64,000 bases of DNA from Escherichia phage BME3: sequence record PP239276.1. One strand, written 5' to 3'. A model generated the notes under the pieces. It ran no database searches, was not told the origin of the DNA, and worked only from the letters and a program-made list of their open reading frames with translations. Shown here piece by piece: positions 934 to 21,706 of the stretch (position 1 is the stretch's first letter; every line of letters begins with the position of its first letter). A program made the position numbers and the translations under genes.

Positions 934-942
934 GGAGAAAGT

Positions 943-1440: not shown

Positions 1441-1452
1441 ATAAGACATAGA

Positions 1453-1471: not shown

Positions 1472-1489
1472 ATTAAAGAGGAGAAAAGA

Positions 1490-2467: not shown

Positions 2468-2473
2468 TTCATT

Positions 2474-2495
2474 AAGCCCCTTCGGGGGCTTTGTT
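2474..2495 (+). terminator. rho-independent terminator
   Basis: AAGCCCC-TTCG-GGGGCTT hairpin followed by TGTT. Confidence 0.6.
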
Positions 2496-2506
2496 GAGGT
2501 GATCTG

Positions 2507-3290: not shown

Positions 3291-3325
3291 TAATTTAATA
3301 CAGATTAAACAAGAAGGAGAAACAG

Positions 3326-4177
3326 ATGAAACTAGAAGTTGGTAAAGTGTATCGCCTGGAAGGTTGGATCTTTAATCAAGAAATTCTTGAGAAGAATAAA
3401 GATGGTTTTGAGTTTGTTGGTACTACCCAGGAAAGTATGCACGATGATGAATACTGTAAATTCGTTGGTAAAAATACAGGTCAAGAACAATTTTGCTTTA
3501 AGAGCGCAATCGGTGATTATGCTTCTGTAATGCCAACACCAGAAAAAACTCCGAAGCAATATACTGTCTTTGGTGTAAAACTTGAAGAACTTGTAGAACA
3601 CCCACGTTTTGAAGAGTTCAAGGTTGCTGCAATGTGCAAGCATTCTGAAATTAAAATACATAATTTGTTTGATTTAGAAGATCGGTTTGATATCTTTATG
3701 TATGATCGCAGGGAAAAGCATTTTGATGCAACGACTTCAAAATTTGCTGCAACAGAGGATATTAAAATTCTTGATGTTGATACCTTTCTTCAGAATGTAT
3801 CGTTTGTATTCATTCCTAAGTACAAAAAACGTAGTGATCATAAACGTGTGAAAGGAACTCCTCGTAAGAAACGTACTGTAAACAAAGCAACTTTGCACTT
3901 CACTTCTGGTGATAAGTATACTCTCAAAGGGTTTGAAAGTGTTTTGTATGATGCTGGAACGGGTAATATCAAGTTTATCATTAAGGCAACCTACAAAGGT
4001 ACGGTATTACACGAAGAGGCTGTTACACTACCTGTATTCGATATCTCTCGTGTTGAGGTACGGGGTGTTAAAGAGTCCTTCGATCTGGATTTCTTAACCA
4101 CTAATGCTACTGGTTATGTTAATCTGGAAGCAGATGGGGCGTTTATTACTACAAATTATTTAGATATGTTTGTTTAA
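3326..4177 (+). CDS. hypothetical protein
   Basis: 283 aa ORF, AAGGAGAAACAG RBS. Confidence 0.55.
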   Translation: MKLEVGKVYRLEGWIFNQEILEKNKDGFEFVGTTQESMHDDEYCKFVGKNTGQEQFCFKSAIGDYASVMPTPEKTPKQYTVFGVKLEELVEHPRFEEFKVAAMCKHSEIKIHNLFDLEDRFDIFMYDRREKHFDATTSKFAATEDIKILDVDTFLQNVSFVFIPKYKKRSDHKRVKGTPRKKRTVNKATLHFTSGDKYTLKGFESVLYDAGTGNIKFIIKATYKGTVLHEEAVTLPVFDISRVEVRGVKESFDLDFLTTNATGYVNLEADGAFITTNYLDMFV

Positions 4178-4245
4178 TACTTAATTTGTGTTATGATGGT
4201 GGTACAGAGGTATCACCATCTACTAAAGAATATGGAGGAAATTGA

Positions 4246-5349
4246 ATGTCCAGTCCTTTTATCAGTGCCGTAAAAAGCAAACCGTCTGAAATGAGTGTAT
4301 TCACGGCAACAACAGAAAAAAGTAAGTCTTTGTTTGCTCCAAGTGCTATGGATGCAAGCCCTGTATATGCACCTGCTGTTGCACGACCTGTACAAATGCT
4401 GCCTCCAATGTCTCGTGAAGAGATTGAACAGGTTGGTGCTGATGCAGGACTTACTCTTCGTAACCTTAATGCTGAAGTGCTTAAACACCAGCGTTCATCT
4501 CAGGGAGATGAAATGAGTGAACGTTTAACTGCACTTATTAAGCAAGCAAAGCAACTTGATCCTAATTCTATTAAACAATCTAAAGGTTTAGGTAAGTTAG
4601 TTAAGAAAGTATTAGGTATGAAAGAAGATTTGTTTGGAGAATTTGACACCATCAATAATCGTATTGAAGGTTTGGTAAAGACACTCCAAACAGACTTGAA
4701 AAAAGAAGAAGATTCTTTACGATATCTGCAACGTTTAGAAGAGGCTATTGCAAAATATGCTCTTAGCTTAAACAGAGATATAGAGCTTCTAACAGCTACG
4801 TATGAAAAAGAAGAAGTTCGCCTTAATACACTACCTGAAAATGAAGTAGAAGAGCGTCAACGTACTCGTGATACTATGGATCTGCTTGAAATTCGTATTG
4901 CAGACCTGAAAGCATTACGTTTACTCTGTGTTCAGATGGGGCCACGTGTACAAAGTATGCAGAAAGTATCTGCAAGTTTGATGCGATCAGCACGTAACAT
5001 TGTGAATAATGTTATCCCTGCTTACTCTGCAAACTTTTCTATGTATATTGAAAGTCTACGCCAGAAGAAAGCAGCCGATACACAGAACAATGTACTGAAT
5101 GAATTTAATGCTGCTATTGCAATGGGTAGTGATCTGGCTGCACAAAACCAAATTGAAGCTACACAACTTGCTAATCGTCAAGTATTGGATATTGAAACAC
5201 TACGTCGCGATCAAGAAAACTTAGTTAAAATGTTGGAAGAAACTAACCGAATCAACACTGAAGCCCGTGCTGCTCGTATTGATTACATCCAAGAAGTGCA
5301 ATCTCTTGAAGATGGTATGATTCAAACTGTTAAACGTGGTCTACTTTAA
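4246..5349 (+). CDS. TelA-like (toxic anion resistance family) coiled-coil protein
   Basis: 367 aa, long helical heptad-rich sequence with layout similar to TelA/KlaA; TGGAGGAAATTGA RBS. Confidence 0.5.
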   Translation: MSSPFISAVKSKPSEMSVFTATTEKSKSLFAPSAMDASPVYAPAVARPVQMLPPMSREEIEQVGADAGLTLRNLNAEVLKHQRSSQGDEMSERLTALIKQAKQLDPNSIKQSKGLGKLVKKVLGMKEDLFGEFDTINNRIEGLVKTLQTDLKKEEDSLRYLQRLEEAIAKYALSLNRDIELLTATYEKEEVRLNTLPENEVEERQRTRDTMDLLEIRIADLKALRLLCVQMGPRVQSMQKVSASLMRSARNIVNNVIPAYSANFSMYIESLRQKKAADTQNNVLNEFNAAIAMGSDLAAQNQIEATQLANRQVLDIETLRRDQENLVKMLEETNRINTEARAARIDYIQEVQSLEDGMIQTVKRGLL

Positions 5350-5362
5350 GGAGAAATATATT

Positions 5363-5569
5363 ATGAATATTAAAATTTACAAACTGTCTGGTTCTATGAT
5401 TGCTGTCCAGTACGACAATGAAGATCGTTATGTTCTCCTCCAGGATGCTTGGTTAGATGATCCTAATGTATTCACTGTCCTGCGAGAACTACGTTCTGTC
5501 TATACCTATTCTTCTAAAGATGGTTTTGATAGTTCAACGATGGAATTGGTAAAAGAGGAGAATGTGTAA
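5363..5569 (+). CDS. hypothetical protein
   Basis: internal ATG at 5363 with AAGGAG RBS; start codon overlaps upstream stop. Confidence 0.45.
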   Translation: MNIKIYKLSGSMIAVQYDNEDRYVLLQDAWLDDPNVFTVLRELRSVYTYSSKDGFDSSTMELVKEENV

Positions 5570-5769
5570 TGAGTAAAGATATTCACTTAACTCGTGAAGA
5601 GTTACAAACCATTATGGAAGATGCTTTCATTGATGGTTGGAAACAAGGTCAAGAGTCAGATTGGTATGATGCCGAAGATTTTTTGTATTATCATATGACT
5701 GCACCTGTAGACGAGCAAACACACTCTGAAACAACTTTGGCTTTAATTGATCTTAAGGCTGGTGTATAA
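5569..5769 (+). CDS. hypothetical protein
   Basis: 66 aa, translationally coupled (TAATG overlap), AAGAGGAG RBS. Confidence 0.5.
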   Translation: MSKDIHLTREELQTIMEDAFIDGWKQGQESDWYDAEDFLYYHMTAPVDEQTHSETTLALIDLKAGV

Positions 5770-6332
5770 TGGGGTGTTTTAGTTTCTTGTGCAAAGAGTC
5801 TGGTAATGCTGCTCTTTCTACCTCTTTCGATGGCTCTCCTTGCTACCTATTTCTTTTGAAAGGTGGTAAAGTTGTTGAAGAGATGTATGGCAATTATGAT
5901 AGCTATGGTAGTGTTTTCTCTAACGAAGAAGATAAACATGGCAATCGTAAAAGATTCAAGTGGTCTATGCCTTGGGAAGAAGTTTGTAATTTGATGTTCT
6001 CTTCCGATCCTGGGGATGGTATCGCTATGATATTAGAAGAGCACTTTACAGGTGAGATCCCAACAGAAAGATCTGAAGAAGACCCTAACCAGGGCTGGGG
6101 TGATGGAGAAGAAGATCCAGATTGCTTCTTCAGTATTGAAAATAATAAATTTAAACGTGTTGACAATCCTTACCACAAAGTGCATAATACTTGCATTGAG
6201 ACAGAAGAAGACTCAAAGCTAGAAATTGAAGATGATTTAGTTGTAACTATCTCTTTAAACGAGTTACAAAAGATCACCAGAGAGGCTTTCTACTTAGGCT
6301 TGAGAGCAGGTAAAGGAGAAGACAGTGCTTAA
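5769..6332 (+). CDS. hypothetical acidic protein
   Basis: 187 aa ORF, coupled start. Confidence 0.5.
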   Translation: MGCFSFLCKESGNAALSTSFDGSPCYLFLLKGGKVVEEMYGNYDSYGSVFSNEEDKHGNRKRFKWSMPWEEVCNLMFSSDPGDGIAMILEEHFTGEIPTERSEEDPNQGWGDGEEDPDCFFSIENNKFKRVDNPYHKVHNTCIETEEDSKLEIEDDLVVTISLNELQKITREAFYLGLRAGKGEDSA

Positions 6333-6594
6333 ATTTAATATCAAAGACGACAAATCAGATGAACCTAAATGTTTTGGAGAACTTGACGCAGGTGATACAT
6401 TCGTATATTATGTTGCCTATCAAGATGCTGGTTTAGATACGTTCAGAAACTTAGTGTTTATTAAGATTAATACAAACCAAGCAATGTGTCTGAACGGTTC
6501 ACAAAGAGGTCAACTTAACTGTATCTTATATGATACAGAAGTGGTAGAAGTGGATTTAGAAGTTACTAACATTACAGTCAGAAAGGAGAAATAA
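6325..6594 (+). CDS. hypothetical protein
   Basis: GTG start at 6325 with AAGGAG RBS 6 nt upstream. Confidence 0.45.
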   Translation: MLKFNIKDDKSDEPKCFGELDAGDTFVYYVAYQDAGLDTFRNLVFIKINTNQAMCLNGSQRGQLNCILYDTEVVEVDLEVTNITVRKEK

Positions 6595-6595
6595 T

Positions 6596-7390
6596 ATGTC
6601 CAATAAAATCAGTCTTAAAAAACGTCAAGAAACTCTTACTGTATCTCTGCGTAAGAAAAAGATTAACGATGTTGTTCTTCGTGTCGGTAGCGCCTTAGAT
6701 ATTTCGGGCAGTATGTGTGAACTGTATCGTGATGGCACTGTTAGTGATTTTGTAGGTAAACTGCTGCCGTTTGGTATGAAGTTTGATGATAATGCACAGA
6801 TTGACATGTGGGCTTTCAATAGTTCTTCTTTTGAACTGCCTCCTGCAACGGCTGATGTGTATGATGATTATGTCGGCTCTTGCATGTCTAATGTTTGCAT
6901 CAACGGTGGTACAGCCTATGCTCCAGTAATGCAAGAGATCTATGATACATACTTCGGTAGTGTACCTATGAAAAATATTACACGCGAAGTCGTTGAGTAT
7001 GAAGAAGTTCCGGCTAAAGGTTTCCTTGCTAAACTAACTGGTAAAAAAGAACTTGTAGAAGTAACACGTACTATTGTAGAACAGGTTGTAGATACTGATG
7101 CACAAGTTGATCGTACTCCTGCAATGATTTTCTTCCAAACTGATGGGGAGAACATGGATACTTCAGCAGTACGTAGCTTACTGAACAAACACCGCAACAC
7201 GCCTGTTTACTGGTTTATGGTCGGTGTAGGTAATGCAAACTTTAAATTCCTGAAAGACTTGGCAAAAGAATACGATAATGTTGATTTTATCGGTATTGCA
7301 GATTTGTCCTTGTCTGATGAAGAACTTTACGATAAACTGTTATCCGAAGAGTTTGGTGAGTGGGTTAAAAAATTCGGAGCAAAAGCGTAA
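6596..7390 (+). CDS. von Willebrand factor A (vWA) domain protein, TerY-like
   Basis: MIDAS-like motif LDISGSM near N-terminus; GAAAGGAGAAATAAT RBS. Confidence 0.6.
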   Translation: MSNKISLKKRQETLTVSLRKKKINDVVLRVGSALDISGSMCELYRDGTVSDFVGKLLPFGMKFDDNAQIDMWAFNSSSFELPPATADVYDDYVGSCMSNVCINGGTAYAPVMQEIYDTYFGSVPMKNITREVVEYEEVPAKGFLAKLTGKKELVEVTRTIVEQVVDTDAQVDRTPAMIFFQTDGENMDTSAVRSLLNKHRNTPVYWFMVGVGNANFKFLKDLAKEYDNVDFIGIADLSLSDEELYDKLLSEEFGEWVKKFGAKA

Positions 7391-7397
7391 AAAACGC

Positions 7398-7425
7398 TTG
7401 ACTTTGTAGAAAAGATTAGTAAAAT
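7398..7425 (+). promoter_or_regulatory. sigma70-like promoter (TTGACT ... TAAAAT) upstream of TerD-like gene
   Basis: TTGACT 7398-7403, TAAAAT near 7420-7425. Confidence 0.45.
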
Positions 7426-7462
7426 AGACAACGTAAATTAACAACAAAGGAGATAATAAATT

Positions 7463-8059
7463 ATGACTCAGAAAATTTCCCTGAAAAAAGGTTCTAGCGA
7501 AAAAATTTCTCTGAAAAAGATCGCACCAGCACTGAAACGCATTCGCCTGGAATTCTCTTGGAAATCTAACGAAAAACTGGATCTGGATGTTAGTGCTCTG
7601 ATTTGCCGACACAATGCATCTGGTCTGCCGGAACTGTTGTCTCCTCGTCACCTGGTGTGCTACGCGCAGAAATTTGATCCTGAACGTTCTACTTTTGCAG
7701 GTGAAGATGTTCGTGATGGTGTAGGGCAGATGGAACAGATTGATGTTACACTGGATAATATCTCTGCTGAAGCACAGGAAATTGCATTCGTAATTACTAT
7801 TGATGATGAAACGGGTAAGAAACGCCTTGGTCACGCTACCGAAGGTTTCCTTAAAATCTTCGATGATGAACGTAATGTTGAACTGCTGGACTTTGACTTC
7901 TTGGCCCCAGAACTTGCAGGTAACACCATTTGCCACGTTGCCTCCCTGGTGCGGGAAGATAGCGAATGGAAACTGAAAGCATATGGTGTAGGTAAAGCTG
8001 GGCTTGACATTTACGATGTAGTTAAAGCGTTTGGCGCTGGCGACGATTGGTTCGAGTAA
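7463..8059 (+). CDS. TerD domain protein
   Basis: N-terminal duplicated ISLKKG/ISLKK motif, D/E-rich core (ITIDDETG) and C-terminal WKLKAYGVG, all typical of TerD family. Confidence 0.7.
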   Translation: MTQKISLKKGSSEKISLKKIAPALKRIRLEFSWKSNEKLDLDVSALICRHNASGLPELLSPRHLVCYAQKFDPERSTFAGEDVRDGVGQMEQIDVTLDNISAEAQEIAFVITIDDETGKKRLGHATEGFLKIFDDERNVELLDFDFLAPELAGNTICHVASLVREDSEWKLKAYGVGKAGLDIYDVVKAFGAGDDWFE

Positions 8060-8078
8060 TAAGTCAAGTAATAAATCA

Positions 8079-8104
8079 TAGCGCCCTTCGGGGCGCATAT
8101 TTAA
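8079..8104 (+). terminator. rho-independent terminator
   Basis: GCGCCC-TTCG-GGGCGC hairpin then AT-rich tail. Confidence 0.5.
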
Positions 8105-8123
8105 AATAAAAGAGGAGAAAACA

Positions 8124-8726
8124 ATGAGTATTACTTTAGAAGGTCAAAAACTTATTCGCAGCGGCAATTTTCTTGTAGATATTGACAACAATGAAGATTA
8201 TGCTTTAGAAGTTAGTGATGTGCTGTTTGATGCTTTGCAGTCTGGTTTCAATTTTGAAGTTTATGAAGTAATCCGTGGAACTAAACTCAGAGAAACCCTT
8301 GGATCATCTAGTGATGTTTATTCGGCAATCTGGCAATATTTCGGGTTAATGGATGGTAAGACATATCTTACTGATAGTTATTCTGAAGATGTTGTTTATC
8401 TTGATATGGAAGAGTTTCGTCGTCTGTTCAAAAGTGAAGAAAATGAAGAAGAGGGTGAACTTTTTGAAGGAATTACTCTCGAAGGTAATGTTGAAATTGT
8501 GTATAAAGCAGGAAAAACATTCCACTTACGTGAAAACGGTAAAGCAAAAGTTGATTTTGTAAACAAGACAGTGACAACTGAACATAATTATCTTAAAGAT
8601 GGTCAACCAGCTTTTGAACGTGTAAAAATTAAATTTAAAGTGTTATCTGCACTAGTCACGGATCAAGAACGTATTGATTTTGTAGAAGATGGTGTAGTAA
8701 CTCATACAAAGGTTTACAATATCTAA
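8124..8726 (+). CDS. hypothetical protein
   Basis: 200 aa ORF, AAGAGGAGAAAACA RBS. Confidence 0.55.
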   Translation: MSITLEGQKLIRSGNFLVDIDNNEDYALEVSDVLFDALQSGFNFEVYEVIRGTKLRETLGSSSDVYSAIWQYFGLMDGKTYLTDSYSEDVVYLDMEEFRRLFKSEENEEEGELFEGITLEGNVEIVYKAGKTFHLRENGKAKVDFVNKTVTTEHNYLKDGQPAFERVKIKFKVLSALVTDQERIDFVEDGVVTHTKVYNI

Positions 8727-8758
8727 CAGAGTGTAAGAGGGGGATAGTCCCCCTCCAC

Positions 8759-8787
8759 TTGCAAAATAGCCTCTTCTGTGTTACAAT
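8759..8787 (+). promoter_or_regulatory. promoter with extended -10 (TTGCAA - 17 nt - TGtTACAAT)
   Basis: TTGCAA at 8759-8764, TG at 8779-8780, TACAAT at 8782-8787. Confidence 0.5.
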
Positions 8788-8818
8788 AAAAGTTCGTTTA
8801 ACAAAATAGGAGGCAAGT

Positions 8819-9328
8819 TTGTCAATAAAAACCTTTGTCGCAATTGCGTTACTATCCTTAACTGCTTTTACATTTACACCTGTTGTGGCGCAAGCCGAAG
8901 CTGCAAACGTAAAAACTGCTAAAGTAGTTCACAAGTGTACAAAGCGTGATAGTAAAGAAAATCTATTAGCTTGTGCAATCTATGCAGAAAGTCGTAATCA
9001 AGGAAAGCGCGGTATGTCTGCTGTTGGTAATGTAGTATTGAACAGGGCAAGAGATTCATATTTCCCTGATACTATAAAAGAAGTTTTGTTTCAAAAAGGA
9101 CAATTCTCTTACACGAAGACATTCAACGTTATGGAACACGATAAGTGGAAGGAAGCTAAGGCTATAGCAGAACGTCTACTTTATCTCGAAAACCATTTTC
9201 CAGAATTACGAATTGCATTAGATATTACAAAAGGAGCATTATACTTTAAAAAATCTACAATAAAAGCACACTGGGAAAAAGATATGGTTCTAGTGTACCG
9301 CTACAAAGAACATCAATTCTATCGCTAA
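8819..9328 (+). CDS. SleB-like cell wall hydrolase with signal peptide (candidate secreted endolysin)
   Basis: TTG start after AGGAGG RBS; signal-like AIALLSLTAFTFTPVVAQA; motif CAIYAESRNQGKRGMSAVGNVVLNR with QFSY resembles SleB/Hydrolase_2 family. Confidence 0.55.
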   Translation: MSIKTFVAIALLSLTAFTFTPVVAQAEAANVKTAKVVHKCTKRDSKENLLACAIYAESRNQGKRGMSAVGNVVLNRARDSYFPDTIKEVLFQKGQFSYTKTFNVMEHDKWKEAKAIAERLLYLENHFPELRIALDITKGALYFKKSTIKAHWEKDMVLVYRYKEHQFYR

Positions 9329-9338
9329 GGAGATATAG

Positions 9339-9617
9339 ATGAAAGATGGCGTTATCGTTGCAAGTTATCTTGTTATTGGTCTTACAGAAGAGGATGTACA
9401 TTACATTAGGAAACATTTAGAACAGTTTGCAATGATGTTCATCGAAGACGAAGACAATGTGGATGTTTATTCAATTGAAATGATCAATGATAACGTCTAT
9501 CCTTGTATAGCTTTACGAGTCGATGAAGATGTTTGGGAACGTTTTTCACGTAGTCACGATAATGTTGAATGTTCTATGGTTATGTCACAAAACAACATAC
9601 TGGGAGTGTTACACTGA
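9339..9617 (+). CDS. hypothetical protein
   Basis: 92 aa, TAAGGAGATATAG RBS. Confidence 0.45.
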   Translation: MKDGVIVASYLVIGLTEEDVHYIRKHLEQFAMMFIEDEDNVDVYSIEMINDNVYPCIALRVDEDVWERFSRSHDNVECSMVMSQNNILGVLH

Positions 9618-9847
9618 TGGCTGATGTTATTGAAGTTAACTTTAAAACAAAAAAGAAAGTTGATAAGTATACAATCTTAAAAAATATTTGCGTTGTGTGC
9701 TTTAATTCTGTAATATATGACTCACGTAAGGGCGAAAATGAAAATGAACCTTACATCCAGATTTCTAAAGGTAAAGGGCAGTGTATCTGCAAAAACTGTG
9801 CTGTAGCAATTAAGGAGGTTGTAGATGAAAACCATTGGGATCAATGA
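9617..9847 (+). CDS. hypothetical zinc-ribbon protein
   Basis: ATG overlapping upstream stop (TGATG); two CxxC pairs (CVVC ... CICKNC). Confidence 0.4.
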   Translation: MADVIEVNFKTKKKVDKYTILKNICVVCFNSVIYDSRKGENENEPYIQISKGKGQCICKNCAVAIKEVVDENHWDQ

Positions 9848-10019
9848 TACTGGTGAAGTTGTAAAATCTTGGGATGATCTTAGTGGTATCCCTACAGATA
9901 AACTGATTAAACTGCGTGATGTTTGTCGTGATCATCTTAATGAAACATATAAAGAGTATATGGAAGCACGAGATCACAGTTTAGCTATCCAAATGGAACT
10001 CGCAAAACGTAATCAATAG
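9825..10019 (+). CDS. hypothetical protein
   Basis: 64 aa, AAGGAGG RBS. Confidence 0.4.
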   Translation: MKTIGINDTGEVVKSWDDLSGIPTDKLIKLRDVCRDHLNETYKEYMEARDHSLAIQMELAKRNQ

Positions 10020-10076: not shown

Positions 10077-10640
10077 ATGATATTTCACATAACTCCCTAT
10101 CTTTCTGGAGATATTGGAAAAGGTATCAATGACACAATAAGTGTCTTACCAGAAGATAGTTGGATTTGCCTAAGAGACATTGATACAATGTTTCTTCTTC
10201 CAGAACAACCTGCTTGGTTGGAATCAATAGTCCGTTCAAATCCTGATTTTGATGTTCTTGGTGCATCTTGTAATAGGTTGGGATCAACATATCAATTATT
10301 TAATAATGAAAGAAGTGAAGATCCAAATATATTACACCACATTGAGATTGCAAAAAGAGCACATCTAGAATGGGGGAACTCAATAGAGGAAGTACCTACA
10401 GATGCTATCTTAGCAGGATTCTTTCTTCTCTTTCGTAAGAGTCTGTGGAATGAAATCCCTTTTGAGGAAAGATCAATACAGTTTGATATAATTTTCTCTA
10501 AAGCATTACACGCTAACAATAAAAGGCTAGGTTTACTACGTGGGTTATATTTATTTCACACATACCGTTTAGGTAATGATGATCCTAGAAAAGCTGTTTC
10601 ACACCTTTTACATTGTCAAGACATGAATAAAATTATTTAA
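10077..10640 (+). CDS. putative glycosyltransferase (DxD-like motif)
   Basis: RDIDTMF motif; position at head of a glycosyltransferase block; weak. Confidence 0.35.
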   Translation: MIFHITPYLSGDIGKGINDTISVLPEDSWICLRDIDTMFLLPEQPAWLESIVRSNPDFDVLGASCNRLGSTYQLFNNERSEDPNILHHIEIAKRAHLEWGNSIEEVPTDAILAGFFLLFRKSLWNEIPFEERSIQFDIIFSKALHANNKRLGLLRGLYLFHTYRLGNDDPRKAVSHLLHCQDMNKII

Positions 10641-10649
10641 GGAGTTATT

Positions 10650-11336
10650 TTGGAAAATACAAAAATTGGTGTTGGTGTTATTACTGTAGGTAAGCGTCCT
10701 CTTAAAGATTATCTTGTGACTGATCCTAATGCTACTTTTGTTGTACAGTATGATCGGGAACGAAAAGGTGTTGCATATGCCCGTAATGAACTGATGAAAA
10801 AGTTTTATGATGAAGGGTATGATTACTGGTTTATCTTTGATGATGATTGCTATCCGGTTGTGCCAGGTTGGGAAACATATTTTGTAAAACAGGCTAAGGA
10901 AAATGGCTGGGATTTCTTTGGTATGCCTGAATACTTTAAAGATAAAGTAAAAGGTATTGAAGGTGAAGTGGTTATTTGGGAACTAGGCATGTGCCAGTTT
11001 GGTATGTATTCCCGTGCAGTTATTGAGAAAGCTGGCTATTTCCGTTCATACACCCACGGTTACGGATATGAAGATGCAGAGTGGATTCAGCGTGTTCCAC
11101 TGGCAGGTTTGAACCGAGGTATTCACGGCGTACCATGTCCTATTCGAATTATGGCGTTTATCCATCCTGACGATGTGTTTGGAGATAATCCTTTACCTTT
11201 TGCGAATCTGTCAAAAGAAGAGAAAGAACAGGGGATTGGTGTAAACTGGGAACAATATAAACAATCACTGGAGGATCTTCGCAATGGTAAAACTTTTATC
11301 TCTTATGAGGAGGCTCAAAAATATGGTAAATCCTAA
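10650..11336 (+). CDS. putative GT-A fold glycosyltransferase
   Basis: TTG start after AAGGAG; N-terminal IGVGVITVGKR and acidic DxD motif FIFDDDCYP. Confidence 0.45.
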   Translation: MENTKIGVGVITVGKRPLKDYLVTDPNATFVVQYDRERKGVAYARNELMKKFYDEGYDYWFIFDDDCYPVVPGWETYFVKQAKENGWDFFGMPEYFKDKVKGIEGEVVIWELGMCQFGMYSRAVIEKAGYFRSYTHGYGYEDAEWIQRVPLAGLNRGIHGVPCPIRIMAFIHPDDVFGDNPLPFANLSKEEKEQGIGVNWEQYKQSLEDLRNGKTFISYEEAQKYGKS

Positions 11337-12297
11337 TACTCCTGTACTTAAGTGTGATAATAAGTTAGGCAGTGGTTGTGATTACCATCGTATTGTAATG
11401 CCATTTGCGGGAAATACGTTTAAGCCTAAGAAAGACGTTTTAGTTTTTAATAGAGTGTATTCTCGTGGATCAGACGAAGTTAAACGCCTGAAGGCACAAG
11501 GTGTTAAGATTATTGTAGACTTAGATGATTTTTATTCACTTAACCCTGAACATTATATGGCTGGCGTATTTAGTAATCACTCAAAGACTATTGTAGAGAT
11601 GATTAAGTTAGCAGATGTTGTTACTGTGACAACAGAATACCTAGCTTACAAAATTCGTCATTTAAACCGTAATGTTGTCGTTATTAGAAACGCACTGCCT
11701 TACGACGAAGGTCAATTTACTTTGACAAAAGACCGTTATTCTGACACGCCTATTATTTGGGCTGGAGGGGCGAGCCATGAGCCTGACTTATCTCTTGTGG
11801 CTAATACATTTGATGATACACTATTGACAATTGCAGGGTATGAAGTGTATCCTTCTGCACCTGTTGGAAATAATAGTCAGTATCTAACTACTGCGGAGTG
11901 GGTTAAAGTCAAACGTAAAATTCCAAATGCACAGTATAAACCAGCTATTAAAAATTTAGGTGAGTATATGTCTGTGTATGACGGTCACAGTATTGCAATT
12001 GCTCCTCTGGTAGATAACGACTTCAACAACTGTAAAAGTAATTTGAAGATTTTGGAAGCAGGTGCAAAGGGTCTTCCTATTATCTGTTCTCCTGTGCTGC
12101 CGTACTTCAATCCGGTAGATGCAAAGGCTGTTATCTATGCAGATTCTAAAGCATCTTGGCATTATGAAGTTGTCAAGCTAATGAGGAACCCTAGATACAC
12201 AGAAGATCGTGGTATGATGCTTGCAGAACACGTTCGTCTTAATTATAATCTTGCAGATGCCAATGAACTGCGTCGTCAAGTTATTGAAAGTCTTTAA
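11323..12297 (+). CDS. putative GT-B fold glycosyltransferase (paralog 1)
   Basis: ATG at 11323 after GAGGAGG RBS; C-terminal KILEAGAKGLPIICSP resembles GT-B donor-binding motif; near-identical motifs to next gene. Confidence 0.5.
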   Translation: MVNPNTPVLKCDNKLGSGCDYHRIVMPFAGNTFKPKKDVLVFNRVYSRGSDEVKRLKAQGVKIIVDLDDFYSLNPEHYMAGVFSNHSKTIVEMIKLADVVTVTTEYLAYKIRHLNRNVVVIRNALPYDEGQFTLTKDRYSDTPIIWAGGASHEPDLSLVANTFDDTLLTIAGYEVYPSAPVGNNSQYLTTAEWVKVKRKIPNAQYKPAIKNLGEYMSVYDGHSIAIAPLVDNDFNNCKSNLKILEAGAKGLPIICSPVLPYFNPVDAKAVIYADSKASWHYEVVKLMRNPRYTEDRGMMLAEHVRLNYNLADANELRRQVIESL

Positions 12298-12308
12298 TAA
12301 GGAGCGAT

Positions 12309-13253
12309 ATGCCTAATATTATTCTTGACACACGCGGAAATGAAAAGTATAGTGTATGTGATTTTCATAGAATCATTTTGCCATATAAACGCAAGCTGAC
12401 CATTAATCCTAAGCATAATATTTTTGTGTTCAATGGAGTACCAACACGTGGGAAGCCAGGTTTCCTGGCTCTTAAACAACTTGGGTTTAAATTGGTAATG
12501 GATCTGGATGATTCTTTAATTATTCCTGAAGGGCATATGCTTGAAGGATTATTTGAAAATCAAATCCGAGATGACCTAAAATGGTTCCTTGAAAGAAGCG
12601 ATCTTGTAACTACAACAACTCCAGCATTAAAGGTTGAATTAAGCCAATACAATGATAATGTACATATTGTGCCTAACGGACTACCTTTTGATGAAGGACA
12701 GTTTGTTCTTACGAAAGATCGTTATTCTAAAAGTCCACTGGTTTGGGCGGGAAGTGAAACACATAAACATGATTTAGCTATTCTTCCTAGTTTTGGTAAA
12801 GATTTAACTTTATGTGGATTTCGTAGAGATCACGAAGAGTTAAGTAGTGCTCAATGGTTGCAAATTAAAGAAGATATTCAACCAGATTGTGTTTATGAAG
12901 GTATTCGTCCTTATGAGTGTTATATGGAAGCATACGATGGTCATCAAATCTCTATAGCTCCATTAGTAAATAATCATTTTAATAATGCCAAAAGTAATTT
13001 AAAAATTCTTGAAGCTGGTGCTAAAGGTTTGCCACTCGTTTGTTCACCACGAGAGAACTACTATACTGAAGAATTTAAAGATCTAATCTTCTTTGCTGAT
13101 TCAGTTAAAGAGTGGAAAGATATTGTAGAATACTTAATCGAATCTCCTGATGTTTGTATTGAGAAAGGATTGGCTCTTGCTAAGTATGTAAGAGATAACT
13201 ACAATATTGATGATTTAAATGAAACCCGCAGACTGCTTATCGAGGATTTATAA
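12309..13253 (+). CDS. putative GT-B fold glycosyltransferase (paralog 2)
   Basis: shares VFN, DLDD, VTTTT, VLTKDRYS and ISIAPLVNNxFNNxKSNLKILEAGAKGLP blocks with 11323-12297. Confidence 0.5.
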   Translation: MPNIILDTRGNEKYSVCDFHRIILPYKRKLTINPKHNIFVFNGVPTRGKPGFLALKQLGFKLVMDLDDSLIIPEGHMLEGLFENQIRDDLKWFLERSDLVTTTTPALKVELSQYNDNVHIVPNGLPFDEGQFVLTKDRYSKSPLVWAGSETHKHDLAILPSFGKDLTLCGFRRDHEELSSAQWLQIKEDIQPDCVYEGIRPYECYMEAYDGHQISIAPLVNNHFNNAKSNLKILEAGAKGLPLVCSPRENYYTEEFKDLIFFADSVKEWKDIVEYLIESPDVCIEKGLALAKYVRDNYNIDDLNETRRLLIEDL

Positions 13254-13522
13254 TGAACACTTTTGATTTTGAGTATAAACAAGATAATAAAGAACCTATT
13301 ATTGTTGAAGTAGATTACTATTATGAAGAACCTAATCCTTTCTCACGAGAAAGTGATTGGGATTATTATGGTGGTCTTATTGTTGATGGTATTAGATTTT
13401 ATTCTGGTACAAAAGAACTTTTTGATATAGATATTTCCCCATCGGAAATTGTTTACCAATTTAAGAAACATATGGAAGATTTGGAAATGCAATATATTAT
13501 GGAGACAAACGAATCATTTTAG
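13253..13522 (+). CDS. hypothetical acidic protein
   Basis: 89 aa, start overlaps upstream stop. Confidence 0.45.
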   Translation: MNTFDFEYKQDNKEPIIVEVDYYYEEPNPFSRESDWDYYGGLIVDGIRFYSGTKELFDIDISPSEIVYQFKKHMEDLEMQYIMETNESF

Positions 13523-13534: not shown

Positions 13535-15307
13535 GTGTCTTATGTTGTAAATAAATATGGGTATAACATTGATCTAAGTCAAGAAGGACATACTGGGTGT
13601 CCTCGTTGTATGAAAGGAGGGCGTGATCGATCACAAAACAATTTGATGGTATATGGCTTAGATGCCGATGAAGACCATCGAGGCGCACATTGTTTTTCTT
13701 GTGGCTTTACTATCCCTGATCAAAAATGGTTAAATGCACACGGCGAAGAAATTGAAGAGGAGGATATCTTGGGTAGTGAGTTTAATCCAGAAGTACATGA
13801 TAAACTAAAAGCCAGCACTGGGACTAATCCAAAAGGTTATCGCGGTATTCGTGAAGATATCTCTAAGCCTTTCGGTGTACGCTATATGTACGATGAAGCT
13901 ACTGGCGAAGTAATTTCAACACTATACCCTACAACTAAAGATTACAATATTGCTGGGTATAAACAACGTATCGATCCAAAAGATTTTTCGCATCCTATCG
14001 GTGAAACAGGAAAGGATTGTGATCTTTTTGGGGAGTTTAAATATCGTAACCACAGCGGTACTATTCTAATCGTTGGTGGTGAACACGATATGCTGGCTGC
14101 AACACAGATGCTAAAAGATTATAACAAGGGTGGTAAATATCCTGTTCCTGCTGTAGTATCTGGTACTTGTGGCGAAACATCTCTGCATAAGCAGCTTCAA
14201 CATCGTTATAAATTCTTAGATCAATTTAAAAAGATTGTTCTGTGTATGGATAATGATGAAGCTGGACGTGCAGCAGTTGAGAAATGTGTTAAAATCTTAC
14301 CACGTAATAAAGTTTACGTGATGGAACTAACGGATGTTAAAGATCCTAACCAGGCACTAGTAGAAGGAAAAATTGATCACTTTCTTGATCGCTTTTTCAA
14401 AGCTAAACTGTACACACCTGCTGGTGTTTATGCTTCTAACGTACTGTATGAAGCAGCCTTGGAATGTCTGGAAGCTAAAATGATTACTCTTCCTCCATTC
14501 ATGCGTGTTGCTTCTAATATGTTAGGTGGAGGCTTGGTAGAAGAAGAAATTACTGTTATACTTGCAAAAACAAGTATTGGTAAGACACTGTTGGTTAACG
14601 AGATTACGAAACACATTATTCTTGCACACCCAGAACATACTCTTGGTATTTTATCTTTGGAGGCAACGTATAAGAAGTATTCTCGTAACTTACTGTCTTC
14701 ATTCTTGCACATCCCTCTTCACCGTAAAACAAAAGAAGAGAAGGAAAAGATTTTAAAAGATAATGAAGAAAAGATTCGTGATTTTTACGAACGGGAAGAT
14801 GGAACACCACGTTTCTATGTTTGTGATGATCGTGGAGCTAACGTAGATGTGATTAAAGAGAAGGTTCTGGAAATGATTATTTATTTCGGAGTAACCATTC
14901 TTGTTATCGACCCTTATTCTGACTTGCTTTCTGGTATGGACGTGTCACAACAAGAGGAACTTGCGACGTGGCTCAAACGCATTATGAAAGAGTACGCAAT
15001 CACCATTGTTGTAATTTCACACGTTAAAAAGTCTTCTAACAATAGTAATGAACATATTGTAGAAGATGATGCAATGGGTAGTAGCTTCCTTGCTAAAGGT
15101 GCTGGTATCACAATTGCGCTGGAGCGTGATAAACAAGCTGAAGATCCTATGGAACGTAACCGCACATATTGCTACATCCTAAAGAACCGTGAGTTCTCAG
15201 AGACTGGTGCAGCAGGTAGTTTCTTCTATGAGATTAAAACAGCGACACTTCACGATTACGATCAATACACAAGTAACCCAGAGAATATTCCTGATGGTTC
15301 TTATTAA
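13535..15307 (+). CDS. bifunctional DNA primase-helicase (T7 gp4-like)
   Basis: GTG start after AGGAGA; N-terminal zinc finger CPRC...CFSC; TOPRIM-like VLCMDNDEAGRAA; Walker A AKTSIGKT and Walker B VLVIDPYSD. Confidence 0.8.
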   Translation: MSYVVNKYGYNIDLSQEGHTGCPRCMKGGRDRSQNNLMVYGLDADEDHRGAHCFSCGFTIPDQKWLNAHGEEIEEEDILGSEFNPEVHDKLKASTGTNPKGYRGIREDISKPFGVRYMYDEATGEVISTLYPTTKDYNIAGYKQRIDPKDFSHPIGETGKDCDLFGEFKYRNHSGTILIVGGEHDMLAATQMLKDYNKGGKYPVPAVVSGTCGETSLHKQLQHRYKFLDQFKKIVLCMDNDEAGRAAVEKCVKILPRNKVYVMELTDVKDPNQALVEGKIDHFLDRFFKAKLYTPAGVYASNVLYEAALECLEAKMITLPPFMRVASNMLGGGLVEEEITVILAKTSIGKTLLVNEITKHIILAHPEHTLGILSLEATYKKYSRNLLSSFLHIPLHRKTKEEKEKILKDNEEKIRDFYEREDGTPRFYVCDDRGANVDVIKEKVLEMIIYFGVTILVIDPYSDLLSGMDVSQQEELATWLKRIMKEYAITIVVISHVKKSSNNSNEHIVEDDAMGSSFLAKGAGITIALERDKQAEDPMERNRTYCYILKNREFSETGAAGSFFYEIKTATLHDYDQYTSNPENIPDGSY

Positions 15308-15716: not shown

Positions 15717-15742
15717 GAAGGGGCGAAAGCCCCTTTACAAAA
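15717..15742 (+). terminator. rho-independent terminator
   Basis: GAAGGGGC-GAAA-GCCCCTT hairpin. Confidence 0.5.
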
Positions 15743-15803: not shown

Positions 15804-18383
15804 ATGGGAGCTTTTACTTTCGACATTGAAAGTAACAACTTGCTTAATGACGAAAGTGTAGATTACTTGGCAAGTCCATATCGTTTAAAAGATAGTTTTG
15901 CAATGCACTGTATTGTGTGCGAAAGTCATGATACTGGAGAGATTATTGCTTTCCATGATGGTGATAAATATCTTTTCGATGGTCGTCCGTATGTTGAGAC
16001 TGACGGAAAGTATGAATACCGACTGGAGGAATATGAGCATTTAGAATATACCCATTTCCCTCTTAAAGATTTTCCTGATTTTGTAAATGGAACAGGTAAA
16101 TTTAAAGGTAATTCAAACTATAAAATTACCAAAGTAGTTGGACACAACATCATTAACTTCGACTTACTGGCAATTAAATTATTTTTTAAACTCAACTACA
16201 GTATTAAGTACAATACTTGGGGTAATAGTAACATTGAAATTTGTGATACTATGATCTTAAGTAAGACACTAAACCCTGATCGCTTCGGTGGTCATAGTCT
16301 GGCAGAGTTATCTAAGAAAGCTGGAGGGGATGTTAAAATTGATTTCAGAAAAAACATTCCTGAAACTGAAAGATTTAGAACATTTGCAGCAGATATGCTG
16401 TATTACTGTATTTACGATAACAAAGCTAACACCGCAGTGTTCCGTTATCTGATGGAAGAATGGGGTGATTATAGTAAGTGGTCTGAACCATTTAACTTAG
16501 AACAACGTGTAGCTGATATTATTACACGTCAAGAGCACCGTGGCTTTGCTTTCAATATGAAACAAGCAGAAGATAATATTCGTGATCTGGATGCTCGAAT
16601 GGAAGCATGTCGTTTAGAGGCAGAACCTGTACTACCTCCTAAACCTGCTACTAAAGGTTATTTGAAATCATTCATTCCACCTAAACTACAGTTTAAAAAG
16701 AATGGTGAACCTTCAAGTAACATGATAAAGTTTGCAGAGAAACATTCTGGTGAACTTGTACAAAAAGAAGATGGTTGGTGGTTATTTGCTTTAGGTAAAG
16801 AATTCAAACTCCCTATTCCAGCAGAAGAACCTATTTGTGATCCTACAGTACCTGCTACTTTAGACGACACTACACATATTAAAAACTGGTTAGTTGGTTT
16901 AGGTTGGAGTCCATCTGAATATAAAGATAAAGATATCACTCTTAAATCTGGCACTAAGATTAAGAAAGATGAAGCACAAATGGAGAAAGCTATTCGTGAC
17001 TATGTTGATCAAACATTAGCATCTAACTTCTGCCAGGATAGATGTGATCATCTGGAGTGCACACCAGAAACTTTGGAATGGAAACTAAGAGATCGTATTG
17101 CTAAAGCTAAAGGTCGTGGTGTTAAAGTGCTTACTAACCCTTCCTTTACAAAAGGGCAAGAGAAAGATATTTGTCCTAACTTGGAAGCACTAGGTGAAAA
17201 GTTTCCTTATGCTACGCAGATTGTGCAATATCTTACGTATAAACATCGTAGAAACTCTATTCTAGGTGGTGGTGCTGATTGGGAAGAAGATGAAGAGGAT
17301 TACGATAAAGGTTATCTGGCGGCAGTAAGGGCTGATGGTCGTATACCAACTCCTGCTGCAACGTGTGATGCAGCTACGTCTCGTATGAAACATAGGTTAG
17401 TAGCAAATATCCCACGTGTAACATCTCTGTACGGATATGAAATGCGTAACTTATTTGGTGTAGAAGTTCCAAAATACTTCCAGATTGGTTATGACTTCGA
17501 TTCTCTTGAAGCAAAAATAGAATCACACTACTGTTGGCGGTACGAGCAGGAGCCACACGAATATTGTAATGCTCTATTGTTGGAAAAACCTAATGATGTT
17601 CATACAATGATGGCTCGACGTATTTCTGACACTATTGGTCGTAAGTTTGAACGAAGCCCTGCTAAATCTGTTAAGTATGGTATTACCTATGGTGCTCAAG
17701 CTGCAAAAGTAGCAAAAACTATTGGTAGTGATATGTATACAGGACAGCTTGTATACGATGCTTTCTGGGAAGCTGCAAAACCTCTTGCGCTTCTTAAAGA
17801 ACGTCTGCATGATTTTTGGGTTAAAACAGGTAAGAAATACATTCTTGGTATTGATGGTAGAAAAGTACCTACACGATCTGCACACGCAATACTTAACTCT
17901 CTGTTCCAGAGTGGTGGTGTTATTTGTGCAAAAAGAGCAATGGTTATCTACGACGATCTTATCGAAGAAGAAGGATTAGCTGTTGACTTTTTTGTTGATG
18001 ACTGGAAAAATAAGTCATTCGTTCAACAAATGATTGCATATCACGATGAAGCACAGCTTGAAGTAACTCGTGATCTGGTGCATTTTAAATGGTTCTCTAA
18101 AGAATCTTTAGGTTGGACTCAAGTTGATGATCCAGAAGAACAAAAGAAAATTGATAAAGAATGTTTGGATAAAGTTAACGCCTGGAAAGAAGAGGAAGAG
18201 AAACGTACTGGCAAGATTTGGGCTAACGTACATGAATCTCCTAAAGGTGGTTGGTTTACAGCCTACAGTCGTGCTGGAGAATTAGCATCTATTGCTGTTA
18301 ATAAAGCTGGTGAGTATTACAATCTTAATGTACCTCTCACTGCTGGTTACGATGTTGGTAACTCATGGGCTAGTTGTCACTGA
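15804..18383 (+). CDS. family A DNA polymerase with 3'-5' exonuclease domain
   Basis: Exo motif FDIESNN at N-terminus; motif A-like DFDSLEAK, motif B RSPAKSVKYGITYG, motif C YHDE; TTAAGGAGGGAGA RBS. Confidence 0.85.
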   Translation: MGAFTFDIESNNLLNDESVDYLASPYRLKDSFAMHCIVCESHDTGEIIAFHDGDKYLFDGRPYVETDGKYEYRLEEYEHLEYTHFPLKDFPDFVNGTGKFKGNSNYKITKVVGHNIINFDLLAIKLFFKLNYSIKYNTWGNSNIEICDTMILSKTLNPDRFGGHSLAELSKKAGGDVKIDFRKNIPETERFRTFAADMLYYCIYDNKANTAVFRYLMEEWGDYSKWSEPFNLEQRVADIITRQEHRGFAFNMKQAEDNIRDLDARMEACRLEAEPVLPPKPATKGYLKSFIPPKLQFKKNGEPSSNMIKFAEKHSGELVQKEDGWWLFALGKEFKLPIPAEEPICDPTVPATLDDTTHIKNWLVGLGWSPSEYKDKDITLKSGTKIKKDEAQMEKAIRDYVDQTLASNFCQDRCDHLECTPETLEWKLRDRIAKAKGRGVKVLTNPSFTKGQEKDICPNLEALGEKFPYATQIVQYLTYKHRRNSILGGGADWEEDEEDYDKGYLAAVRADGRIPTPAATCDAATSRMKHRLVANIPRVTSLYGYEMRNLFGVEVPKYFQIGYDFDSLEAKIESHYCWRYEQEPHEYCNALLLEKPNDVHTMMARRISDTIGRKFERSPAKSVKYGITYGAQAAKVAKTIGSDMYTGQLVYDAFWEAAKPLALLKERLHDFWVKTGKKYILGIDGRKVPTRSAHAILNSLFQSGGVICAKRAMVIYDDLIEEEGLAVDFFVDDWKNKSFVQQMIAYHDEAQLEVTRDLVHFKWFSKESLGWTQVDDPEEQKKIDKECLDKVNAWKEEEEKRTGKIWANVHESPKGGWFTAYSRAGELASIAVNKAGEYYNLNVPLTAGYDVGNSWASCH

Positions 18384-18520
18384 CATCTCTTTGATTTTAA
18401 AGGAGTTTTTATGTGGGACAATCTGTTATTGCCAAGGTTGTTCCACACTTTTAAACCATTTCATAATTAGATGTTTGAACATCTAGAATAACGCAAAGAC
18501 CATAAGAGATAGGAGAAAAT

Positions 18521-19114
18521 ATGAATATTGAAGATCAAAAAGTACGAGCTTTAGAAGTATTACGTATGTGCCAACTGGTAGATCCGTTTGCAATTGTAGC
18601 TGGCGGCGCTGTACGTGACTGGCGATTAGAGAAACCTGCGCAAGATATTGATATTTACTTGCGTATGCCTAACCACAATACACTCGTACTAGTAGAGAAA
18701 TTTTTGATGTTGGGTGTTGGTGCACGTAATGTTAAACAACTTACTAAGCAAACAGAACACACTTATGCCGAACTACCACATTTGAAATGGGTATTTGAAG
18801 CATACTATAAAGACCTTAAATTTAATTTTATGATCATGGAAGAGGGTGTACGCAGTGAAATCGTATGGAACTTTGACGTAGCTATTTGCCTGTGTTACTG
18901 GGATGGTCAAAATTATGTATATCATCCAGATTTTGAATTTGCACTGAAAACTAATATTTGTACTATTAATCACCGATACACAGGTAAAGAAGCACACGTC
19001 CGTAAAATGGCAGAACGTTTCCCTATGTTCCGCTTTGTAAAAGACGTTTTCATTCCCAAAGAACCCGAAGTACGTACACTGGATTCATTTAACAACGAAG
19101 AATTTAAGATTTAA
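18521..19114 (+). CDS. Pol-beta superfamily nucleotidyltransferase with CCA-adding-enzyme-like head motif
   Basis: VAGGAVRDW ... QDIDIYL matches the GGxVRD / DxD signature of class II tRNA nucleotidyltransferases; only 197 aa. Confidence 0.5.
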   Translation: MNIEDQKVRALEVLRMCQLVDPFAIVAGGAVRDWRLEKPAQDIDIYLRMPNHNTLVLVEKFLMLGVGARNVKQLTKQTEHTYAELPHLKWVFEAYYKDLKFNFMIMEEGVRSEIVWNFDVAICLCYWDGQNYVYHPDFEFALKTNICTINHRYTGKEAHVRKMAERFPMFRFVKDVFIPKEPEVRTLDSFNNEEFKI

Positions 19115-19117
19115 GTG

Positions 19118-19147
19118 TTGACAAACATTATAATTATGTGTTATTAT
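19118..19147 (+). promoter_or_regulatory. sigma70-like promoter (TTGACA ... TATTAT)
   Basis: TTGACA at 19118-19123 followed 17-18 nt later by TTATTA/TATTAT. Confidence 0.4.
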
Positions 19148-19157
19148 GAGGACTTGA

Positions 19158-21700: not shown

Positions 21701-21706
21701 GATAAA

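Follow-up and report, generated by a model that had tools for sequence, protein, structure and literature searches.

A glycosyltransferase cassette beside the replication genes of Escherichia phage BME3 and its possible role in virion glycosylation

Organization of the glycosyltransferase locus

The 64,000-nucleotide stretch of Escherichia phage BME3 that was analysed (record PP239276.1, referred to as the window) carries a block of four glycosyltransferase-like genes at positions 10077-13253, designated A to D (Table 1). The block is classed here as an uncharacterised virus-encoded glycan-assembly cassette of a known kind, with its own sugar-nucleotide supply. A first-pass annotation of the window had described four tandem glycosyltransferase-like genes adjoining replication genes, and both parts of this description hold, as the four open reading frames (ORFs) are co-directional, occupy that interval and are followed by genes for a primase/helicase and a DNA polymerase. 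The same annotation leaned towards sugar hypermodification of the phage DNA as the function and added that the window alone could not decide the matter. The caution was well placed; the proposed function is not borne out, for reasons given below.

The window belongs to the genus Justusliebigvirus (phi92-like) of the Stephanstirmvirinae. The 3.6 kb around the block are 98-98.6% identical to 55 GenBank phage records, among them PHB05, VEcB, Paula, EmilieFrey (Bas61) and JohannJBalmer (Bas62); the D proteins of the window and of JohannJBalmer share 100% identity. The same genes are known elsewhere as phi92 genes about 162-165 and as bas62_0046-0049 of Bas62. The feature is real but, as annotation, it is not new, because several public records, including RefSeq NC_052652 and NC_052653, already label all four genes as glycosyltransferases; the DNA hypothesis is likewise public. 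The BASEL records name two of the genes putative glycosyltransferase and the other two putative disaccharide synthase.

All four proteins are predicted to be soluble. Their maximal Kyte-Doolittle hydropathy over 19 residues is 0.83-1.21, which indicates no transmembrane segment, and neither signal peptides nor transmembrane segments were found in A, B, C or D, whereas neighbouring envelope proteins have such segments (TerC and the secreted hydrolase reach 2.84 and 2.08, respectively, on the same scale). The isoelectric points (pI) of A, B and D are acidic, at 5.2-5.6. An NCBIfam scan of A to D and the 89-amino-acid (aa) ORF downstream of D gave no matches. Sequence identity to solved structures is low (9-17%), and sequence searches of PDB chains with A, B and D and with the family profiles returned nothing significant beyond weak GT4 matches of the C/D-family profile (MshA and TreT, E about 0.007).

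Table 1. Features of the glycosyltransferase block and its surroundings in the window
Feature	Position	Strand	Description
Gene A	10077-10640	+	187 aa; short soluble GT-A/GT2-like glycosyltransferase; DxD is D34-I-D36
Gene B	10650-11336	+	228 aa; TTG start; soluble GT-A fold glycosyltransferase; invariant D64-D65-D66
Gene C	11323-12297	+	324 aa (337 aa from alternative start 11284); GT-B/GT4-like; ancestral-type paralog
Gene D	12309-13253	+	314 aa; GT-B/GT4-like; second paralog
Small acidic ORF	13253-13522	+	89 aa; pI 4.1; PHROG 4240 (function unknown); putative module member
Primase/helicase gene	13535-15307		directly downstream of the glycosyltransferase block and 89-aa ORF
DNA polymerase gene	15804-18383		downstream of primase/helicase
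Macro-domain protein	100-933	+	Ter-type set
TerC	1490-2467	+	E 1e-38
Predicted lipoprotein	2685-3290	+	signal peptide ends LVGC; inside Ter-like cluster; no Pfam match
TelA	4246-5349	+	E 5e-34
vWA-TerF-like protein	6596-7390	+	E 1e-38
TerD	7463-8059	+	E 5e-28
SleB-type cell-wall hydrolase	8819-9328	+	Hydrolase_2, E 3e-20; TTG start; N-terminal signal-like hydrophobic segment

The GT-A type proteins A and B

The fold and hidden Markov model assignments that the first-pass annotation had called for place B in the GT-A class and C and D in the GT-B class, and give GT2-type matches for the family of A. The two DxD-like motifs that it had pointed out are also present, RDIDTMF in A and FIFDDDCYP in B. 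Protein A matches PHROG 14179 (glycosyltransferase, E 5e-113) and has no Pfam or NCBIfam match of its own; residues D34 and D36 are invariant in its homologs. A profile built from 32 A homologs retrieves 1207 cluster representatives, many of which are fusion proteins of 370-650 aa that join the A-type domain to TOD1_MUCI70 or GT2 domains. In the relatives P0122, P0136 and P0153, the A-type domain itself is matched by Glycos_transf_2, Glyco_tranf_2_3 or Glyco_tranf_2_5, with E values of 2e-11, 8e-11 and 2e-4 and with the GT2_5 match falling under its cut-off. On the strength of these family relationships, A is taken to be a shortened GT-A enzyme.

Protein B has the single Rossmann-like fold with a DxD metal and donor site that is expected of GT-A enzymes, and its DDD triplet is invariant. 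It resembles SpsA and the capsid-glycosylating enzymes A64R and A197. A and B show no sequence relation to each other (BLASTP E 54; hhalign probability 0.6%). Comparison by hhalign of B with the N-terminal partners of the A-domain fusion proteins also found no relation, so that A and B are not connected through fusion proteins either.

Protein B has a partial match to TAGT (PF20691; E 7e-5) that scores 23.3 bits against a gathering cut-off of 27.5 bits and covers 60 residues (residues 16-75 on profile positions 37-96 of 205). Among its viral structural neighbours in BFVD, a TAGT-domain protein of phage phiRSL1 ranks 39th with a TM of 0.45, and B also weakly matches the PHROG of the T-even beta-glucosyl-HMC-alpha-glucosyltransferase (E 5e-5). 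Assignment of B as a TAGT was rejected given the score below the gathering threshold, the partial coverage and the failure to find a co-encoded TET/JBP dioxygenase in the JohannJBalmer annotation or among 29 proteins scanned with Pfam.

The GT-B type paralogs C and D

The adjacent GT-B-like genes are indeed a duplicated pair, as had been suggested. C and D align end to end with 41% identity and 61% positives (E 4e-83), both match PHROG 7162 (glycosyltransferase, E 1e-145 to 1e-149; 4e-149 for C), and both keep all 15 of the family-invariant columns in a 40-sequence alignment, so that the relationship lies far beyond chance. The motif blocks originally cited for the pair stand in part. The long block KSNLKILEAGAKGLP is present in both proteins, but VLTKDRYS is not, since C reads TLTKDRYS and D reads VLTKDRYS and the shared part is LTKDRYS only. 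There are two candidate starts for C, at 11284 and 11323, each preceded by a GGAGG-like sequence. The start at 11323 is preferred on comparison with homologs: the 13 additional residues of the 337-aa form lie outside its PHROG match, which begins at residue 20, and a length of 324 aa is the commonest among homologs in the databases.

The AlphaFold2 model of D (pLDDT 94.5, pTM 0.92) has two Rossmann-like domains with an inter-domain cleft, the arrangement that defines the GT-B fold, and assigns the C/D family to that fold. Its best matches are GT4-type GT-B enzymes, among them HepE (score 23.3), a PglA-type transferase (22.9), BshA (22.7), PimB (22.3), PimA (21.8) and TarM (20.8). T4 alpha-glucosyltransferase ranks 18th with a score of 19.3 and T4 beta-glucosyltransferase 32nd with 17.4, and at least 17 GT4 enzymes that do not act on DNA match D better than the former. 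D passes the threshold of PF13524, which we take to be the CgeB/YkvP spore-surface glycosylation type, with 26.8 bits against a cut-off of 25; C scores 14.7 bits on PF13524 and 17.6 bits on PF13692, both below the cut-off.

The phage proteins differ from characterised GT4 GT-B enzymes (sucrose-phosphate synthase, HepE, PglA-type, BshA, PimA/PimB, WaaG, TarM and GtfA) in several respects. Identity to these enzymes is 9-16%, and C and D are 314-324 aa long whereas the GT4 enzymes are 360-500 aa. The C-terminal E-x7-E motif, the donor-binding motif of classical GT4 enzymes, is half present: E235 is invariant in the 40 sequences together with K228, S229 and K232, but the position of the first glutamate is occupied by Ala227 in D. 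The label disaccharide synthase (LpxB-type, GT19) that some records give to C and D was rejected, as neither protein matches LpxB in sequence or fold. Acceptor specificity is not readable from the GT4 fold.

Sugar donor supply

A complete set of dTDP-L-rhamnose genes lies outside the window in the near-identical JohannJBalmer genome, where RmlB, RmlA, RmlC and RmlD are encoded in a row amid genes for ribonucleotide reductase, ThyX and thymidine kinase. All four Rml proteins were confirmed by Pfam (E 1e-72 to 1e-82). RmlC occurs throughout the Stephanstirmvirinae and in Klebsiella phage KP2025, which also has a C/D homolog. It is a reasonable inference that the A-D glycosyltransferases use dTDP-L-rhamnose. 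It is normally inverting GT2-like enzymes, the type assigned to A and B, that take dTDP-beta-L-rhamnose as donor. The common donors of GT4-like enzymes are alpha-linked UDP- or GDP-sugars, although WsaF, which transfers rhamnose, departs from this rule.

Conservation and evolution of the module

The C/D family is found at no fewer than 550 confirmed viral loci. Isolated phages that carry it are Justusliebigvirus and Phapecoctavirus, with two copies each, a few Klebsiella phages with one copy, and Streptomyces Zukovirus. In a neighbour-joining tree, the C-type and D-type proteins form two deep sister clades, both of which are retained across Justusliebigvirus and Phapecoctavirus, and single-copy homologs from other phages (P0031, for example) group with the C clade. 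Since both of these deep clades have been retained, the duplication is old, with both copies kept, which argues that C and D catalyse distinct, non-redundant steps.

Genes of the A, B and C types recur together, in varying order, in phage contigs L009-L023, and B is absent from some close relatives (L004-L006). Recurrence with changed order and the absence of B are what one expects if a pathway is modular and the make-up of its glycan varies. A pair of B-type and C-type genes also occurs in four Pseudomonas genomes, in prophages. Clustering of the neighbourhoods of 80 viral loci revealed a recurrent acetyltransferase-like/GT-A/GT-B arrangement in one abundant aquatic lineage, with functions read from the sequences, but none of the neighbouring genes was a marker by which to choose between acceptors. 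Another contig places the family within a larger cluster of sugar genes, which also encodes a GT2 enzyme, an epimerase/dehydratase, a DegT aminotransferase, a radical-SAM enzyme and a second PF13524 enzyme.

The position of the 89-aa ORF between D and the primase/helicase gene is kept in L004-L008 and L012, and an 83-aa ORF takes its place in L084 and L085. The location of the block directly before the primase/helicase and DNA polymerase genes is kept in L007-L012, L084 and L085. In the window, GC-rich perfect hairpins at 8081-8096 and 15718-15735 (of the type GCGCCC-TTCG-GGGCGC) flank the hydrolase, glycosyltransferase and primase/helicase genes, which may form a single transcription unit with these hairpins as bidirectional terminators at its two ends. 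A scan for sigma-70 promoters found 37 sites against 28.6 +/- 5.6 in shuffled sequence. Because this is not above background, no conclusion on the timing of expression is drawn.

Phage structural proteins as the favoured acceptor

The four soluble Leloir-type glycosyltransferases may be viewed as a module for glycan assembly in the cytoplasm, in which two unrelated GT-A enzymes (A and B) are combined with an anciently duplicated pair of GT4-like GT-B enzymes (C and D). The module probably works with the phage-encoded RmlA-D pathway for dTDP-L-rhamnose and with host UDP-sugars, the GT2-like enzymes being the natural candidate users of dTDP-beta-L-rhamnose. Sugars would be added sequentially to build a short hetero-oligosaccharide, which would be placed on phage structural proteins in the cytoplasm before or during assembly. 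We infer the donor sugars, the sequential action and above all the acceptor. Phage structural proteins are the most likely acceptor, at a probability of about 0.38, followed by host envelope glycoconjugates, then by other acceptors and, far behind, by DNA.

The virion is favoured because a C/D-family gene lies near the head of the structural genes in other phages, because D passes the PF13524 threshold and because B resembles SpsA, A64R and A197. The first of these observations comes from three unrelated lineages in which the gene is at or near the start of the genes for packaging and structure. In contig L088, which is 36 kb long, B-like and C/D-like genes are followed by one small ORF and then by genes for the small and large terminase subunits, portal, protease and capsid. 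In two Pseudomonas prophages, the pair follows a lipoprotein-like ORF and precedes one further ORF and then putative genes for the small and large terminase subunits and portal, these terminase and portal calls being made from ORF size and order alone. In Streptomyces Zukovirus (KimJongPhill), genes for a nucleotide-sugar epimerase and a methyltransferase are followed by a distant C/D homolog, one gene, and the large terminase, portal and capsid genes. In chloroviruses and mimiviruses, virus-encoded rhamnose pathways that feed capsid glycans are established. With enzymes that are soluble, a deoxy-sugar donor made by the virus itself and, in the other lineages, a position close to the head of the morphogenesis genes, the phage system resembles the virus-encoded virion glycosylation of actinobacteriophages, chloroviruses, mimiviruses and STIV.

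Several observations weigh against virion glycosylation. A glycosylated virion protein of a phi92-like phage was not found in the searchable literature, and a Ser/Thr-rich glycosylation tail is not obvious in any structural protein of the window; the only strongly Ser-rich tail in that screen belongs to the upstream lipoprotein, which is not a virion protein. A published absence of glycoprotein staining in the E. coli myophage JEP7 was given no weight, since the taxonomy of JEP7 is not stated there. The block sits in the replication or early-middle region, where it is probably co-transcribed with the primase/helicase gene, and the Rml genes lie amid nucleotide metabolism, a placement that suits DNA- or host-directed functions at least as well. 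It is also located just downstream of an envelope-related Ter-type cluster and a secreted cell-wall hydrolase gene. The homologs that provide the structural-module context are distant (27-38% identical), and their terminase-adjacent placement would also fit a modification of DNA before packaging.

In contrast to known virion glycosylation systems (the mycobacteriophage cassettes, chlorovirus A64R, STIV A197 and the mimivirus rhamnose/viosamine pathways), the genes here are part of a replication module and not a structural module. The spore-surface machinery of Bacillus subtilis comprises the GT-A enzyme SpsA, a CgeB-type PF13524 GT-B enzyme and the dTDP-rhamnose genes SpsI-L. The phage block is like it in domain content only, with no detectable orthology.

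One further homolog of C and D, P0045 (411 aa, 35% identity), comes from Burkholderia dolosa (JAIMDN010000082; positions 3025-8440 of locus L086) and is the only clearly chromosomal homolog from a named bacterium. Its gene directly follows an inverse-autotransporter invasin/intimin-like gene and an unknown 571-aa gene. The lateral tail fibre of the phage is annotated with intimin-like domains. The Burkholderia context may hint at glycosylation of an adhesin or fibre, but as a single case it carries little weight.

Host envelope and other possible acceptors

Alternatively, the acceptors of A to D could be lipid-linked intermediates on the cytoplasmic side of the inner membrane, such as those of the lipopolysaccharide (LPS) core, enterobacterial common antigen or glycans linked to undecaprenyl phosphate. 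Rhamnose, or another sugar, would be attached to them and alter the infected cell's surface. The outcome could be superinfection exclusion, protection of progeny from adsorption to cell debris, or diversion of host glycan precursors. Enzymes of envelope glycans dominate the GT4 and GT2 relatives of the phage proteins (PglA-type, PimA/PimB, WaaG, WaaB, WbnH, TarP, TarS and RmlT), dTDP-rhamnose is a classical donor for O-antigen and cell wall, and TerC, TelA, TerD, a lipoprotein and a secreted cell-wall hydrolase, all envelope-associated, are encoded in the 10 kb upstream of the block. The paired B-type and C-type genes also occur in Pseudomonas prophages, where surface conversion is common; there, however, the pair lies among late genes before a putative terminase, which is an unusual site for conversion genes expressed in lysogeny. 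All four BME3 proteins are soluble, and no Gtr-type flippase or GT-C partner accompanies them. In addition, the one latent period of a virulent phage is probably too short to replace the LPS already in the outer membrane, so receptor masking would be weak. On balance a host-envelope acceptor is less likely than the virion and is the strongest of the alternatives. A classical Gtr-type seroconversion system, with its membrane proteins GtrA (the flippase), GtrB (the bactoprenol glycosyltransferase) and GtrC (a GT-C enzyme), was considered separately and rejected, as A to D lack transmembrane segments.

Somewhat less probable still is an acceptor of another type, for example a small molecule, an RNA such as a nucleoside of phage or host tRNA, or a host protein, with a role in host takeover or counter-defence. 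The close structural neighbours of the GT4-like proteins do include small-molecule enzymes (sucrose-phosphate synthase, BshA, MshA, TreT, GlgM, tetrahydrobiopterin glucosyltransferase and SenB). Metabolite-directed and counter-defence genes are plentiful in the genome, including those for nicotinamide adenine dinucleotide (NAD) salvage, a phosphoribosyltransferase, HAD, macro-domain and NADAR proteins, tRNAs and tRNA-synthetase-like fragments. A Ter-type cluster lies just upstream of the block, and clusters of this type have been linked by comparative genomics to a predicted nucleoside-like metabolite. Four transferases and a dedicated deoxy-sugar pathway would nevertheless be a heavy investment for a small metabolite, further tailoring or export genes are not evident beside the block, and neither RNA nor a host protein has a specific pointer.

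DNA as a possible acceptor

Sugar hypermodification of DNA was put forward for exactly these phages by Olsen et al. in 2020 (PMC7552041), and it is the function that the first-pass annotation had favoured. Rhamnose or other sugars would be transferred to a hydroxylated or hydroxymethylated base and the DNA would thereby evade nucleases, as does DNA with the glucosyl-hydroxymethylcytosine of T-even phages or poly-arabinosyl-5-hydroxycytosine. The conserved location of the block before the replication genes, the Rml genes amid those for ribonucleotide reductase, ThyX and thymidine kinase, and the weak matches of B to TAGT and the T-even alpha-glucosyltransferase PHROG are consistent with this proposal. 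There is also precedent for a phage sugar-nucleotide pathway that acts on DNA together with several glycosyltransferases (PMC13326640). Points in common with established systems (the T4 alpha- and beta-glucosyltransferases, the poly-arabinosyl-5-hydroxycytosine systems of RB69 and DLP3, and TET plus TAGT) are that the phage encodes several glycosyltransferases as well as a sugar-nucleotide pathway, that genes of DNA metabolism are close by and that the fold class is shared.

The restriction phenotype of near-identical phages points the other way. Maffei et al. described phi92-like phages in 2021 as "exceptionally susceptible" to restriction-modification "despite a putative dTDP glycosylation machinery" (PMC8594841). 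Bas61 and Bas62 formed no plaques on strains with EcoRI, EcoRV or EcoP1I and were reduced on EcoKI and EcoCFT_II (PMC8594841). In one listed experiment with Bas62, the counts in plaque-forming units (pfu) were 2.4e7 on the vector control, 2.5e6 on EcoKI, 1.1e7 on EcoCFT_I and 1.4e6 on EcoCFT_II, with none (given as the placeholder 1e-06) on EcoRI, EcoRV and EcoP1I (PMC8594841 S1 Data). Bas61 behaved in the same way; for the two phages the vector control gave 2.4-2.7e7 pfu, and the efficiency of plating on EcoKI was about 0.1 (PMC8594841). Restriction of these phages by type II and type III enzymes is therefore complete. By contrast, the glycosyl-hypermodified DNAs of T4, RB69 and DLP3 are highly resistant to such enzymes (PMC13326640). 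Nucleoside analysis of phi92-like virion DNA was not found in the searchable literature.

Systems of the T4, RB69 and DLP3 type also require a hydroxylase or hydroxymethylase homologous to ThyA (PMC13326640), and a search for such a precursor-making enzyme, one of the checks proposed in the first-pass annotation, turned up ThyX alone. The JohannJBalmer annotation contains no ThyA homolog and no TET/JBP dioxygenase, and a Pfam scan of 29 further proteins (19 from JohannJBalmer and 10 from the window) found neither TET/JBP nor ThyA, with many small ORFs outside the scan. The sole thymidylate-synthase-like protein is ThyX-type (PF02511, E 4e-9). The better match of D to at least 17 non-DNA enzymes than to T4 alpha-glucosyltransferase and the acidic pI of A, B and D likewise speak against DNA as the acceptor. 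Because of the restriction sensitivity, the finding of ThyX only, and the partial, sub-threshold TAGT match of B, bulk DNA glycosylation is very unlikely, and DNA hypermodification of any kind is the least probable of the four readings by far.

Since the restriction data exclude bulk base replacement and not a low-density mark, there is a slim chance that a sparse or site-specific rhamnose glycan is placed on DNA without blocking EcoRI, EcoRV, EcoP1I or EcoKI. Such a mark would be confined, for example, to a rare sequence context or to the genome ends, or would be built on a base from a hydroxylase that has escaped recognition, for which the divergent ThyX-like protein of 323 aa is an example. 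If real, it would be the first deoxyhexose (rhamnosyl) modification of DNA and would be aimed beyond classical restriction. The ThyX-type protein in question, annotated as thymidylate synthase at 18262-19233 of the JohannJBalmer locus (L003), is divergent and unusually long and gives a partial match to the Thy1 profile. In that genome no other protein is a candidate for unconventional pyrimidine modification.

Significance of phage structural proteins as a possible acceptor

The phi92-like and phAPEC8-like phages of the Stephanstirmvirinae are among the coliphages with the broadest host ranges and are included in therapy cocktails, and they devote about 7 kb to a complete dTDP-rhamnose pathway and four glycosyltransferases. 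If the virion is the target, phage glycosylation, which has been shown mainly in actinobacteriophages and in giant and archaeal viruses, would extend to enterobacterial phages, with a bearing on the stability, immune recognition and pharmacokinetics of therapeutic phages. Tentatively, and with somewhat less confidence than attaches to the acceptor itself, the block could represent the first system for virion glycosylation in phages with Gram-negative hosts, supplied from a dTDP-rhamnose pool that the phage makes itself. The families of C/D and A both occur very widely among uncultured phages (at least 550 viral loci for the former, 1207 cluster representatives for the latter), and a single acceptor identification would therefore annotate many viral genes.

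Neighbouring genes and other observations

Upstream of the block, positions 100-8059 (+ strand) of the window hold a Ter gene set in a virulent phage, which GenBank records mostly list as hypothetical. In JohannJBalmer, genes for a HAD-like protein and a phosphoribosyltransferase lie just upstream of this set. In the lipoprotein encoded within it, some segments are rich in Gly and others in Asn/Thr, and the C-terminal tail, SYSSPISSYSKSSKSYSSSKRSFSSSRRR, is basic with a very high Ser content. The gene for the SleB-type hydrolase precedes the glycosyltransferase block by about 750 bp and is distant from the endolysin that is annotated in related genomes.

Two records named Campylobacter phage A145 and A110a (MG065645 and MG065689) encode D and RmlC proteins that are 99-100% identical to those of E. 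coli Justusliebigvirus, and these genomes are also about 146 kb in length. The host label Campylobacter jejuni is probably wrong, or the samples were contaminated.

In a Phapecoctavirus-like contig (IMGVR_UViG_3300010283_000033; L007, positions 6669-9998), the match to DNA polymerase comes in two parts with about 730 bp between them, which suggests an inserted element, intein or homing endonuclease that is absent from the polymerase gene of the window. Within the window itself, the GC skew changes from positive to negative at about 21000-22000, exactly where gene orientation flips from the replication block on the + strand to the tail-fibre and structural block on the - strand.

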